DNA of 63,040 nucleotides, the filler included, from Reclinomonas americana ATCC 50394 (Eukaryota), in assembly GCA_048213135.1 (NCBI GenBank). It is 14 parts of 14 records of this genome, joined end to end, with 100 filler letters (N's around TTAATTAATTAA, not from the genome) between each part and the next. Parts side by side here need not be neighbours in the genome. Positions count along the whole stretch, not along the records: positions 18,394 to 34,216 come from AFZH01019094.1; 13 more parts are not named here. One strand, 5' to 3'. The position numbers and the translations under genes were made by a program. The notes beneath the pieces were generated by a model that was not told the origin of the DNA, did not search any database, and worked only from the letters and a program-made list of their open reading frames with translations. This document shows, one piece after another, positions 20,738 through 28,733 of this stretch. How positions within the stretch are numbered: the stretch's first letter is position 1; each line of letters starts with the position of its first letter.

Positions 20738-20850
20738 GTGTGCAGAGAGAGAGAGAGAGAGAGGCAGAGAGACACACTCTCTCTTACGCGCGTATCTCTC
20801 GCTCACTCGACTGTGAGATGTCCTGTGCGTGTCATGAATCGCGAGTTGCT
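20738..20850 (+). promoter_or_regulatory. Upstream block shared by the two ankyrin-kinase paralogs (copy 1)
   Basis: CACACTCTCTCTTACGCGCGT.TCTCTCGCTCACT.GACTG.GAGATGTCCTGTGCGTGTCATGAAT.GCGAGTTGC also occurs at ~24304-24380, just upstream of the paralog's ATG. Confidence 0.6.
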
Positions 20851-20892
20851 TACAGAACTCACACACACTCTCAGAGAGAGGGTGAGAGAGAC

Positions 20893-23892
20893 ATGGGTGC
20901 AGCACAGGGCAGTGACAGGTGTGTGTGTGTTTGTTTCTCGCTTTCTCTTCTCCTCGCTGACTCTCTCTGACAATTGTTGCTCGTTGAGCAGTCAACAACA
21001 GAGGAGGCTGAAAGCCTGGGAGATGGCGAGGGATGGCGATGTGCAGGCACTGCGTGAGTTGGTGGCGCGTGAGGGCGCGCGCACTCTGCTGAAGAAAGAG
21101 GAGATGGATGGTAGCTGGTCGGCATTTCACTATGCCGCTGCCTATGGCCATCTCTCTGTGTTGGAGTATTTGTGGGAGGAGAGTGGCGTCGGGCCACAAC
21201 TCGCACAAATGGTCACTGTCAAAGGCTGGACGCCACTGATGGTGGCTACCGGCGGAGGGTATCTGAAAGTGGTGGAGTGGTTGCTTGCCGACGAGCGACG
21301 ATGTCCGCCTGAGATGGTGCGGGCTGTTGACGACGGCGGTGAAACTGCTCTGCATTTTGCTGCCTATTATGGCCGCGAAGCCATGGCGCGACCCCTCGCC
21401 ACTCGCTTCCCCGACCTCATTCCCATGGTCAACGAGAAAGGCAAGACGGCAGCTCAGCTGGCACGCGACCAGGGCAAGCAACAAGTGGCCGAGTTGCTCG
21501 ACCGCCTCGCTGCGGAGCAACGAGCACCTCCACCACGCCAACAACCCCCACAACCTCCCTCTCCGCCATCACCACCACCGCCACCAGCAGGTGAGATCTC
21601 ATTTTCGTGTTGCACACACTCCTCCATGCATCTTTCTCTGGTTGTGTTCACCCTGCAAAACCACGCAGAGCCAGCACGCCCGCAACAACAACAGCCACAA
21701 ATCTCCCCTCCCTCTTCACCACCACCACCACGAGCAGCAGGTGAAATCTCATATTTGTCTTGTGCAGATGGTTGATTTGTGTTCTTTGCCACTCACACTC
21801 CTCCATGCGTGTTTCTTTGTTTGCGAGAACACGCAGTTCCGCCGCGCCAGGTGAGAGACTGTGTCATCTTGCTTGTGCTTTCGCGTTGCTCATCATGTTT
21901 GCACTCTGCGTCTGCGCAGGTGATTGACGACGCCACCGACAAGGACGCACTCATCACCCAACTCCGGCGCGATCTCGCCACATCGCAGCAGGAGCGACAG
22001 CAACAGCAGCACGAATGGGATCGACGGCGACGAGAGCACGAAGATATCGTGGCTCAACTGCAGCAAGCCAGCGCTGAGTTGCGAGAGGCGCATGCCAAAG
22101 ATCACCAACAAGTTGCACAGCTTCGCGTTGAGGTGGAGCGACGGGACGCTACCATTTCGCAGTTGCAGCAAGCAAACGGACGGTTGCAGCAATCTGATGC
22201 CCAGAGTCGGCAGCAAGTCGCGCAACTGCAGCGAGCCCATGCAGAATGGCAGCAAGCTCAAGCTCAGCTGGAATCCCAGCTGACTGTGGCATTGCGTGAC
22301 AAGGACGAGTTGTCTGCTCAGCTGATTATCGTGCAGCAGCGACTGGAAGAGAAAGACTGTCTTCTCTCCCAACTTCGACAGGAACTCCTCCTCGCCCAAG
22401 GTCTTTGCATCTATCTCTTGTTGTCCTCGTGCTTCTCCAACCATGCATTTAGTCTCCATCTTTCCCTTCCGTCTCATTCCACAGTCGACACTGCCGTGCA
22501 GCGCTTCGAGTGGCCGGAGATTGTGCACGCCACCGACTCATTCTCGCCACGGCTGAAGGTGGGCGAAGGTGGCCAGGGCGCCGTGTTCATCACTCTACTT
22601 CGTGAGATGCATGTGGCCATCAAAGTGCTCGACCCCGATGCACCGTGGACGATGGAATCGTTTGAGAGTGAGGTCTGTCTGTCCTTCTCTCCTTTTCATT
22701 CCCTGTCTTTCTCCTCATCCTTCTCCTTTTCTCACAAGGTGGCCACTCTCGGACGTCTGCGTGACCGTCGCATTGTGCCTCTTGTCGGCTACTCTGTGGG
22801 CGACGACAAGGCACGCTGTCTCGTGTACAAGGCCTTGCAGTGCGTGTTCAACTCTCTCTCTTCTTGTCCCTCTCATCAGTCATTGTTAACTGTGAACGCG
22901 CGCAGAGTTCCAAACTTAGAGGACCTCCTGCTGCTTCGTGTCGGTCGTGCACCACTCTCTGTCGTACAACGTGTGCAGATTGGTCTCGGACTGGCCGAGG
23001 CCGTGGCGTTCTTGCACAAGGTGTGTGTTCGATAAAGATGGCAGTCTTTGTTTCTCTCAGTCGTCTCGCCTTCTGTTTCGCACTCTCTTTCTCTACGCTG
23101 CAGTGTTCTATCTCTTTTGTTATCTCAGTCTTCCGTGACCCCTACGGTTTCCTGCTGTGTTCTGTCTCTTCCGTTCCCTTGTGATATGTATGCACGTCGT
23201 CATTCCTTCTGTTTCGCACTCTCTTTCTCTATGCTGCAGTTTTGTATATCTTTTGTTCTCAGTCTCTCGCGTCTCCCTGCTTCCTCCTATGTACTGTCCT
23301 CTTGTTACCTTGTGGTATTTGTAGATGTACTGCGCCTCTCATTTCACCACTCCCGCACAGAACGAGGTGGTGCACCGCGACATCAAACCCGCCAATGTGC
23401 TTCTCGATCACCGTTTCGAGGCTTGCCTCGGTGACTTTGGTATTGCGCGATCGATTGCCGGTGGCAAGGTGCGCTTCTCTCCTATCTCGTCTTCCTAGAT
23501 GTCTCCATTCGATCTCTTACCTGCACCAGACAACCCCCGCCGCCGGCACGCCCGACTACATGGATCCGCTGGCCCTCCGCGCCCGACGTCCATTGCCCAA
23601 GCACGACGTGTACAGCATGGGTGTCGTGCTGGTGCAACTGGTCACCGGCAAGCCGGTGGTGACGGTGGGCGAGTGGTCGCTGGAATGGGACGAGTCACCA
23701 GACTCGTTACGCGTCATGGAGCTGGTGGACAGCGCGGATGGCGTGGAGTGGACAGTGCGCATCGCGGAAGCCATGTTTGCCATCGGCATGCGATGCATGA
23801 GTCTGCGACGTGATCGACCGACGGCACAGGAGGTGCTTGAGGTGATGCGCGCGGTGCGTGAGGCGTGCGGCAACTTTACGCTGGAACTCTAA
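20893..23892 (+). CDS. Putatively myristoylated ankyrin-repeat / Pro-rich / coiled-coil / Pelle-IRAK-type protein kinase
   Basis: Frame-consistent exons: 20893-20918 (MGAAQGSD), 20992-21590 (ankyrin repeats SAFHYAA, WTPLMVA, ETALHFAA, KTAAQLA), 21669-21740, 21837-21850 and 21920-22400 (Q/E coiled coil). Kinase exons follow with FEWPEIVHATDSFS-KVGEGGQG, VAIK, CLVY, HRDIKPAN, DFG, GTPDYMDP, DVYSMG and RPTAQEV. Stop at 23890-23892. Confidence 0.88.
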
Positions 23893-27400: not shown

Positions 27401-28386
27401 AAGTGGCATCAGCGGTGGTGCACATGCACTCGTGTCGAGTGGTGCATCGTGATCTGAAGCCGCAGAGTTGCGTCTTGGGGAGCGCAAAGGGAGAGAGTAA
27501 GAGAAGAGGATTATGAGATGTTGATGCAAGAGAAGATGAGAGGAAGAGAGAGACAACCAGGCGAGTGCGGTCTGTGTGCTTGTGCAAGTGGCTTCAGCGG
27601 TTGTGCGCACTCTCGTCGAGTGGTGCATCGCGATCTCAAGCCACAGAGTTTCATTTTGGAGTGGGTGATGGGAGAGCGAGACTACAAGAGAGAAGGATTA
27701 TGGCATGTTGATGCAACAGAGTGGATGTGAGAGAGAGGGCAGTGGAGCATCTTCCAGATCAATCACTTGCTTCTTTATCTGCTGACTCTGTTCCCATTGC
27801 TTGTCCACAGACATACTCGTCAGCGAGGACCGACTCATGGCCAAGGTGTGCGACTTTGGTGAGGCCAAGATTCACGGCACACTTGGCAAGATGCAGTCGA
27901 ACCACGGCACGGCAGCGTATGCTGCACCCGAGGCCATGTTGGATCAAGAGGTGCACTGATGACATTCTCTTCTCTTGCTGAGTGGTGTTCGCTCATGGAT
28001 TCCTTCACCACTCGCAGTACGACGAAAGGGCGGATGTGTATGGACTTGGCTCGCTGCTCTGGTTCATCGCCACTCGTCAAGAACCGTTCAGTGGAGTGAC
28101 GCTGCAGGCGATTCTGCATTCCATGCGTACGAGCATTCCACCCGCCGATCTTGACGATGAGGGTGTGCGAGCTGCCGTGCCGGAGGATGTTCGCAATCTG
28201 ATTCGGCAGTGCTGGGTTGCGCTCTGAATCAGTAGATCGTGTTGCTGGGAGAGGTGGCTTCTCATTGTGCGTGTGATACAGAGGCCACAAGCAACACGCG
28301 CGTCGGCATCGTATGTGCTGGACGAGCTGTGGCGCTTAAGCGAGGCTGCAGAGGGAGGAGCAGGACCGGCTGGGCCTTCACAGTGA
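24442..28386 (+). CDS. Putatively myristoylated ankyrin-repeat / Pro-rich / coiled-coil / HEPN-like RNase / TKL-like protein kinase
   Basis: Frame-consistent exons: 24442-24467, 24524-25122, 25201-25275, 25375-25397, 25520-25965, 26035-26181, 26242-26512, 26573-26750, 26812-26928, 27002-27167, 27228-27466, 27811-27950, 28018-28215 and 28282-28386. The HEPN-like segment reads MDVSLLSALL...IRAVENLRDVRHRVSH...LEDAEY. Kinase motifs are VAYK, FENE, HPHIVKL, HRDLKPQN, DFG, GTAAYAAPE, DVYGLG and CW. Confidence 0.82.
27582..27750 (+). pseudogene. Degenerate intronic duplicate of the kinase catalytic-loop exon end and adjacent intron
   Basis: Copy of ~27398-27560 (VQVASAVV...VVHRDLKPQ) with a frameshifting deletion. 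The donor GTTGCG is changed to GTTTCA. Confidence 0.8.
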
Positions 28387-28733
28387 GCAGGAGGGTGATG
28401 ATATGTTGGGATCATTACAAGCCTGGATCGTATACTGCCTGCTCCTGTGTCTGTGGTACGTGTGCGCCTGATGGAGAATTCTCCATGTTCCCACTGACTC
28501 ACTCTCTTGTTGATCGCAGGTGCGTGGATCATCGAAGCGCTCGTCGTCCCATCGCCGAACAGCTGGCCAACGAGCTGCGCGACCTGGCGGCGATGTCGGT
28601 ACGACGGTGTTCGCGACACGTGCCTGCGTCCGTGCGGACATCAAGTGCTGGGAGGAAGCAGAGAATGCATAATACGAGCGAGACGGGGCAGTGCTATCGT
28701 CATTTATGAAAGCACTGCTATATTTCCCCTTCC

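Follow-up and report, generated by a model that had tools for sequence, protein, structure and literature searches.

Two tandem ankyrin and coiled-coil genes of Reclinomonas americana share a duplicated 5' unit and carry unrelated kinase-bearing 3' units

This report concerns two adjacent genes, here called gene A and gene B, in a 63,040-nucleotide (nt) stretch of DNA from Reclinomonas americana ATCC 50394 (GCA_048213135.1) that consists of 14 parts of 14 records joined end to end with filler between them; this whole stretch is called the window below, and all positions are counted along it. The window is of eukaryotic character, with short GT-AG introns and a G+C content of about 54%, and the genes lie in the part taken from AFZH01019094.1 (positions 18,394 to 34,216). 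Both genes are intact and stand head-to-tail on the same strand (Table 1), and their comparison gives good support for modular paralogy, in which one duplicated 5' unit has been joined to two unrelated 3' units. As modelled, the 5' unit comprises promoter-proximal DNA, a Met-Gly exon, a four-repeat ankyrin exon, two Pro-rich mini-exons (exons 3 and 4) and the first part of a coil-coding exon. In gene A this unit leads into a kinase resembling IRAK and the receptor-like kinases (RLKs), and in gene B into a helical domain that is a candidate HEPN domain, followed by a different kinase. The explanation that we favour as a whole, at a probability slightly better than even, is that of tandem paralogues whose shared 5' unit would serve two different outputs, each activated by clustering.

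The duplicated block is about 1.6 kb in length, and its 5' limit precedes the ATG by 177 nt in A and by 209 nt in B. Direct repeats at offsets of 3531-3600 tie positions 20716-22082 to 24233-25682, and blastn aligns 20716-21894 with 24233-25438 at 79.3% identity over 1232 columns and 21905-22082 with 25506-25682 at 86.0% identity over 178 columns. Exon 1 and the first nine bases of the following intron are identical at 35 of 35 positions, exon 2 has the same length of 599 nt in A and B, and introns 1-4 agree in position and phase. At the protein level, residues 1-359 of A and 1-367 of B are 64% identical (BLASTP, E=4e-120), and the two kinases are 28% identical to each other (BLASTP, E=1e-9). 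A preliminary description of this DNA had reported that upstream sequence, exon 1, the ankyrin exon, the Pro-rich exons, the intron positions and the start of the coil are common to both genes, and the repeats, the blastn alignments and the gene models all agree with it.

Table 1. Predicted genes, exons, domains and decayed copies at the locus, with the divergence between A and B in the shared parts
Feature	Position	Strand	Description
Gene A	20893..23892	+	Predicted; 10 exons, 688 residues; introns all GT-AG, spliced frame open
Gene A exons 1-5	20893-20918, 20992-21590, 21669-21740, 21837-21850, 21920-22400	+	
Gene A exons 6-10	22485-22672, 22739-22839, 22906-23020, 23361-23468, 23530-23892	+	
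Gene B	24442..28386	+	Predicted; 14 exons, 909 residues; 13/13 introns GT-AG, 909 codons open
Gene B exons 1-5	24442-24467, 24524-25122, 25201-25275, 25375-25397, 25520-25965	+	
Gene B exons 6-10	26035-26181, 26242-26512, 26573-26750, 26812-26928, 27002-27167	+	
Gene B exons 11-14	27228-27466, 27811-27950, 28018-28215, 28282-28386	+	
Shared block, copy A	20716..22285	+	About 177 nt 5' of ATG, exons 1-4, most of exon 5
Shared block, copy B	24233..25897	+	About 209 nt 5' of ATG, exons 1-4, most of exon 5
Exon 1 of A	20893..20918	+	Encodes MGAAQGSD; identical to B exon 1, 24442-24467
Exon 2 of A	20992..21590	+	Cap helix, about 4 ankyrin repeats, start of Pro-rich linker; B counterpart 24524-25122
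Exon 5 of A	21920..22400	+	160-residue coiled-coil or long-helix segment
Exon 5 of B	25520..25965	+	Coil; internal 117-nt tandem duplication 25585-25795
Kinase A (exons 6-10)	22485..23892	+	GEGGQG, VAIK (K444), HRDIK (D539), DFG
B middle domain (exons 6-8)	26035..26750	+	Residues 390-588, roughly 200 residues; helical orphan, candidate HEPN
RHRVSH (B residues 540-545)	26603..26620	+	Rx4H motif, His after Arg
Kinase B (exons 9-14)	26812..28386	+	VAYK (K649), HRDLKPQN (D758), DFG, APE; no GxGxxG loop
Decayed copy in B intron 11	27571..27737	+	Copies 27386-27550 (exon 11 3' end and intron start), 75% over 173 columns
Exon-2 relic	33258..33366	-	First ~110 nt of exon 2; 76.7% to A over 120 columns, E=6e-20
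Exon 1			A vs B identity 100%
Intron 1	A 20919-20991, B 24468-24523		A vs B identity 93%
Exon 2			A vs B identity 83%
Intron 2	A 21591-21668, B 25123-25200		A vs B identity 92%
Exon 3			A vs B identity 92%
Introns 3 and 4			A vs B identity 71%
Ankyrin exon, synonymous difference			Proportion of synonymous differences (pS) 0.27-0.29 (synonymous distance, dS, about 0.35)
Shared parts			Ratio of nonsynonymous to synonymous distance (dN/dS) 0.35-0.49

Strong similarity between the two genes stops at about 22082 in A and 25682 in B, and weak homology continues to about 22285 and 25897 (A residue 359, B residue 367; BLASTP). The patch named earlier as the last one shared does hold a 19-mer exactly at 22249 and 25840, which none of 100 shuffles matched, but the strong similarity has stopped before it. 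Because that similarity already ends inside exon 5, the break is placed within the coil-coding exon and not at the intron after the coil, where the preliminary description had put the divergence. A simple exchange through phase-compatible introns is disfavoured by intron 5 itself, whose phase is 1 in A but 2 in B. A copy of the heptamer AGTTGCG at 22077-22083 in A exon 5 coincides with the end of strong similarity, and we treat this as coincidence; the copy was rejected as a used splice donor, since a join from there to exon 6 would not keep the reading frame.

Both gene models were built by hand and checked by translation, and every junction in them is predicted. With codon usage trained on gene A, the model frame is favoured in 12 of the 14 exons of B, the exceptions being exon 4, which has 23 nt, and exon 14, the last one, and the middle-domain exons 6, 7 and 8 score 0.50, 0.21 and 0.55 in the model frame; 12 of the 13 introns score <=0.12 in any frame. 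An end of exon 11 at 27496 was replaced by one at 27466, whose GTTGCG donor restores the canonical catalytic loop HRDLKPQN. This donor occurs in four B introns (after 26750, 27167, 27466 and 28215), and AGTTGCG is present in 23 copies in the window against 9.6 expected, a count that 0 of 100 shuffles reached; from these counts GTTGCG looks like an ordinary, common alternative 5' splice-site type of the host. Four AGTTGCG copies lie within an ABC-transporter-like gene at 3074-3976. The second gene had been described as reaching 28620, whereas the present model ends at 28386; the interval 28521..28620 (plus strand) was considered as a last exon or a kinase relic and discarded, with no Pfam match, no tblastn match and no coding signal. 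In gene A, introns 5, 6 and 7 (84, 66 and 66 nt) are multiples of three and stop-free, and exons 5-8 with their introns form one open frame of 419 codons (region 21776-23032), so that intron retention would keep the frame.

These data also bear on the possibility that gene B is mis-modelled or decaying, either as an ankyrin-coil gene that ends just after 25965 and is followed by a separate downstream gene, or as a pseudogene that is open by chance. Retention of B intron 5 would bring an immediate stop after the exon 5 donor, the join of exon 5 to exon 6 and the use of exon 1 are predictions, exons 4 and 14 lack coding bias, and there is a pseudo-exon in intron 11 and an odd amino-terminal lobe (N-lobe) in the kinase. 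Set against this are the 13 GT-AG introns and the 909 codons that are open when spliced, the frame-specific codon bias of the exons together with its near absence from the introns, the restoration of the canonical catalytic loop by the GTTGCG donor, and a gap between exons 5 and 6 of 69 nt, compared with local intergenic gaps of 218-341 nt. We consider a mis-modelled or decaying gene B unlikely.

In both proteins the N-terminus, MGAAQGSD, is a motif match for a Met-Gly start with permissive downstream residues, and under the N-myristoylation consensus it would be a predicted site of N-myristoylation and membrane anchoring. The ankyrin repeats of exon 2 are recognized by Pfam (Ank_2, 1.9e-19 in A and 1.4e-35 in B), with both matches passing the cut-off. 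With the canonical recognition positions set as in designed ankyrin proteins, A and B disagree at 15 of 24 such sites in the four repeats, against 15 of the 80 remaining ones (Fisher p=8e-5). The differences are thus concentrated at the recognition positions, and the A and B chassis probably bind different things. The chassis that had been described earlier as the same in both genes is shared in its order of modules and is not identical. The Pro-rich linker that follows contains an old internal exon duplication, present in both A and B: exon 3 with the start of intron 3 (21686-21762) is 75% like the end of exon 2 with the start of intron 2 (21539-21612).

Exon 5 of A is modelled by AlphaFold2 (AF2) as a single helix spanning residues 2-159, with a predicted local distance difference test (pLDDT) score of 95.3, and it gives weak Pfam coiled-coil matches; a single helix with regular hydrophobic spacing fits a long coiled coil. 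The first ~54 residues of the coil are highly identical in A and B, and the two are poorly alike beyond them. The tandem duplication in exon 5 of B gives its coil an extra 39-residue repeat relative to A; in blastn, the 5' end of the single A copy matches the first B repeat, and its 3' end matches the second.

Divergence along the shared block is uneven (Table 1). Neutral sites elsewhere are far less alike than introns 1 and 2 or the Pro-rich end of exon 2, and we therefore read the pattern as patchy gene conversion, with the distribution of identities suggesting conversion tracts between A and B. A conserved element in introns 1 and 2 could be an alternative. A search of 19000-34000 against Rfam returned 2 matches only, both far below the gathering score, and left introns 1 and 2 unexplained by known RNA. 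In the shared parts, dN/dS is that of purifying or relaxed selection, with no overall positive selection.

The catalytic motif set of kinase A is complete, and the kinase is predicted to be active. Its exons 9 and 10 reach 35.9 and 32.6 bits against the Pfam Pkinase family (cut-off 31.7). At E<=0.001 the exon encoding the carboxy-terminal lobe (C-lobe) matches 41 PDB sequences, consisting of 26 from IRAK4, 13 from plant receptor or receptor-like cytoplasmic kinases (RLCKs) and 2 from CTR1. The N-lobe exon has 16 PDB matches at E<=1: 15 kinases and a designed repeat protein, whose match is an artefact that arises when weak repeats are summed. The matches with named families include LysM-RLK, IRAK1, CERK1, lectin RLK, BRI1 and BIK1. 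The best solved relatives of both lobes thus lie among IRAK/Pelle and plant RLK/RLCK kinases, and similarity supports an IRAK/RLK-like assignment; the Pelle/IRAK label given earlier is borne out in both lobes, with 39 of the 41 C-lobe matches being IRAK4 or plant RLK/RLCK. In contrast to these kinases, A is without a death domain or an extracellular or transmembrane part, and has ankyrin repeats and a coiled coil as its N-terminal module. Some plant receptor-like cytoplasmic kinases are also N-acylated. ILK, TNNI3K and RIPK4/ANKK1 combine ankyrin repeats with a tyrosine kinase-like (TKL) type of kinase in one polypeptide, as A and B do, but are not known to have a Pro-rich linker, long coil or tandem swapped tails. 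A search of the kinase A C-lobe against longer proteins found 0 of 587 candidates at E<=1e-5.

In gene B the coil is followed by the middle domain that had been described earlier as HEPN. According to PMC3710099, HEPN domains are recognized by an Rx4-6H motif with a polar residue (N, D or H) after the Arg and by an upstream Ex3[KR]. The RHRVSH of B has the Rx4-6H form with a polar residue in that place, a predicted helix follows it in the AF2 single-sequence model, and upstream ESLVR has the form Ex3[KR]; 10 other Rx4-6H patterns in protein B call for caution with RHRVSH. The middle domain has 30 matches in the ESM Atlas; 12 of them belong to a set that bears HEPN_DZIP3, 5 to one with DUF4559 and 1 to a set in which both occur, and the neighbours that carry a family come from HEPN_DZIP3, DUF4559 and HEPN_Swt1 clusters. 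The scores of these matches are 0.90-0.94, with the top two sharing 190-191 of 256 features, and in the HEPN_DZIP3-bearing set the family is present in 11% of members. DUF4559 is presumably CXorf38.

Kinase B is recognized by Pfam through exon 11 (Pkinase, 48.1 bits, cut-off 31.7). Its exons otherwise give weak and mixed matches to IRE1 (catalytic loop only), CDK6, PTK7 and Aurora, and others match PknB, MLKL, RIPK1 and TAK1, the last three being weak matches of the C-lobe exon. An earlier assignment of a TKL-like kinase to B stands as regards the kinase, and its TKL-like label rests on weak, mixed matches. Each kinase gene has a single long intron, of 340 nt in A and 344 nt in B, which adjoins the catalytic-loop exon and contains an internal tandem duplication; that of A pairs 23060-23187 with 23196-23318 at 80%, and that of B intron 11 copies the exon end encoding HRDLKPQ.

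In the explanation that we favour, both proteins would be N-myristoylated, membrane-proximal scaffolds whose helix of ~150 residues forms parallel coiled-coil dimers. A ligand or partner on the ankyrin face, or plain clustering, would then bring the C-terminal enzymes together. In A this could lead to trans-autophosphorylation of an active IRAK/RLK-like Ser/Thr kinase and thus to a phosphorylation output. In B the coil would lie directly N-terminal to the helical domain with RHRVSH, and, if that domain is a HEPN domain, dimerisation would build a two-protomer RNase site, with the adjacent atypical kinase acting as a regulator or dimer interface, in a logic like that of RNase L and IRE1 but with the domains in the opposite order. 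The swapped tails are joined inside the repetitive coil-coding exon, and A and B together would couple related, non-identical recognition modules to two different outputs.

Besides the predicted joins and the intron 5 stop of the B model, a number of results weigh against this explanation, most of them concerning the middle domain. The queries were made exon by exon and with an in-frame read-through of 26243-26749 that includes 20 intron-derived residues, which weakens the profile tests. An exhaustive HMMER search with the middle domain gave 0 matches at E<=0.001 among 1.84 billion representatives. In Pfam the best and sole family at E<=10 is HEPN_Swt1, at E=0.14 and 12.8 bits against a cut-off of 27.5, so that HEPN_DZIP3 (PF18738) has no match at this level, and PADLOC, NCBIfam and PDB sequence searches of the domain returned nothing. 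The AF2 single-sequence model, made with the query that holds the 20 intron-derived residues, is mostly helical with a pLDDT of 40.3, too low for a fold comparison. In the ESM Atlas the recognition value is 2122, below the mark of 2300, 3 of the 10 best family-bearing matches agree, and exon 7 alone gave no usable match. In the neighbouring kinase, a PDB search with the N-lobe exon gave nothing at E<=1, and the lack of a glycine loop may make normal ATP binding doubtful. Myristoylation, dimerisation and any ligand are steps that we infer, and the recognition positions, taken as in designed ankyrin proteins, are of a kind that is least constrained in any ankyrin paralogues. With a best Pfam match of this strength and no structure match, the HEPN domain reported earlier for the second gene is not confirmed and is kept as a lead only, and we put a HEPN identity for the candidate domain somewhat above an even chance.

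The results for this domain could also be read to mean that it is not HEPN and is a lineage-specific helical regulatory or executioner module placed before a (pseudo)kinase, with A and B being subfunctionalised membrane-proximal kinases. In MLKL a helical domain, a four-helix bundle, likewise comes before the kinase. The order in B is thus that of MLKL and not that of RNase L or IRE1; MLKL, RIPK1 and TAK1 are among the weak matches of the kinase B C-lobe exon, its kinase has a degenerate glycine loop, no profile or structure route gave a significant HEPN match, and Rx4-6H patterns also arise by chance, with 10 others present in protein B. What speaks for a HEPN domain over such a module is that RHRVSH has the HEPN-typical polar residue after its Arg followed by a predicted helix, that the family-bearing Atlas neighbours are mostly HEPN families, that the single Pfam family returned is a HEPN family, and that kinase B, unlike typical pseudokinases, keeps VAYK, HRD, DFG and APE. 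A non-HEPN module of this kind is possible and, in our estimate, rather unlikely.

Gene B resembles RNase L and IRE1 in that ankyrin repeats, a protein kinase and a candidate HEPN-type domain stand in one chain, and in that the dimerising element adjoins the candidate RNase domain. It differs from them in that the helical domain is N-terminal to the kinase and the KEN profile has no match in gene B (Pfam), as well as in its long coiled coil, Pro-rich linker and Met-Gly start and in a kinase that keeps its catalytic residues. PMC3710099 lists KEN as fused to a kinase along with ankyrin repeats, and lists the DZIP3 family, which has lineage-specific expansions, as fused to ankyrin, CARD, NACHT, DEATH and LRR domains, with no kinase fusion given for it in Table 1 of that source. 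The nearest ESM Atlas clusters, which carry HEPN_DZIP3 or DUF4559, point to a likeness with DZIP3/hRUL138-like and CXorf38-like HEPN domains; those are domains of animals and Capsaspora, whereas the B middle domain has no sequence relative in the HMMER search and its host is a jakobid. A literature search of limited extent found no description of this architecture.

A and B are tandem paralogues of a probably lineage-specific family. Among proteins of near length in a collection of 5.8 billion clusters, the closest relative of the ankyrin exon, and the only one, is P0121, a protein of 154 residues derived from expressed sequence tags (ESTs) of the jakobid Reclinomonas americana. It is 72% identical to A by BLASTP, and in a three-way alignment P0121 and A are 67% identical and B and A 76%; with a 5-residue insertion in a repeat tip it is distinct from both A and B. 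Its EST origin means that the ankyrin module is transcribed in a jakobid, and if P0121 comes from the same species as A and B, the family would have at least three expressed-type members. The exon-2 relic lies 5 kb away on the opposite strand, is damaged by a deletion and an in-frame stop, and is not followed by ankyrin sequence. The family is therefore wider than A and B because of P0121 and this relic. Against longer proteins the ankyrin exon gave 158 matches at E<=1e-10, the best 120 of which are generic ankyrins at an uninformative 25-33% identity, and a metagenome scan with the ankyrin alignment gave 376 pattern matches, of which 0 were confirmed. Decayed fragments had been reported in the cluster, and both the relic and the decayed copy in intron 11 have been located by blastn and translation. 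As to the birth-and-death family proposed earlier, some turnover is evident from the relic, the partial exon duplications in introns and P0121, and the family is known from this locus and a single EST.

Such turnover enters a reading that takes up the idea of the preliminary description, in which A and B would be a paired immune receptor of a rapidly turning-over birth-and-death family, hetero-oligomerising through the shared coil and serving as sensor and executor in defence against viral or bacterial attack. As in paired plant nucleotide-binding leucine-rich-repeat receptors (NLRs), the genes are adjacent and related with partly different domain content; the first part of their coils is highly identical, their ankyrin recognition positions have diverged, and IRAK-like kinases and HEPN domains serve immunity elsewhere. 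Plant NLR pairs are arranged head-to-head, whereas A and B have the same orientation and are without a nucleotide-binding domain, and Pfam finds no NACHT/NB-ARC, TIR or DEATH domain in the exons of either gene. The coils are poorly alike past ~54 residues, B has its extra repeat, overall dN/dS is below 0.5, and beyond A and B the family is known to include a single relative and a single relic. A complex prediction for coil A with coil B scored 0.29 against a mark of 0.34, which speaks neither for nor against binding. PMC3710099 lists HEPN families that are fused to ankyrin, DEATH and NACHT domains and have expanded in particular lineages, which would fit an immune role. The domain content, the orientation and dN/dS leave the immune-receptor pair without direct support, and we give it little credence.

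A broader version of the preferred explanation would see in the locus of this deep-branching protist a shuffling family of membrane-tethered ankyrin-coil sensors whose effectors are exchanged by recombination in the coil exon, with B as an independently evolved RNase L/IRE1 analogue, a HEPN ribonuclease gated by dimerisation and coupled to a kinase, and A acting via an IRAK/Pelle kinase. This version is improbable as it stands; if true, the effector logics of innate immunity, both of them, would also exist beyond animals and plants. The locus is in any case a compact example, from a sparsely sampled lineage, of how multidomain signalling proteins are assembled, with its junction in a repetitive coil exon and not in an intron. 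If the IRAK/RLK-like character of kinase A holds in phylogeny, it bears on the age of that kinase family. Should the B middle domain prove to be a functional HEPN RNase, an ankyrin-HEPN-kinase protein would have arisen outside animals with a different domain order, and a repeated origin of dimerisation-gated RNase-kinase modules could be tested directly.

The surroundings of the two genes agree with the housekeeping flanks described earlier. Upstream of gene A lies a TRAPP-like gene (19284-20495; Pfam TRAPP, 3e-14), whose region contains a tandem array of 86-92-nt units at 19584-20142, and downstream of gene B an RRM gene (30430-31110; Pfam) is encoded on the minus strand. A second tandem array, of 236-nt units in 3.8 copies with 87% matches (31752-32611), lies between this gene and the exon-2 relic. 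Elsewhere in the window, Pfam matches in open frames comprise an ABC2 membrane domain (2981-3802), Methyltransf_16 (12965-13822), RasGEF (36208-37266), pieces of a PI3K (C2, PIK and catalytic; 40326-45596), Galaxin-like repeats on the minus strand (47476-48099) and an H-type lectin (59693-60319).

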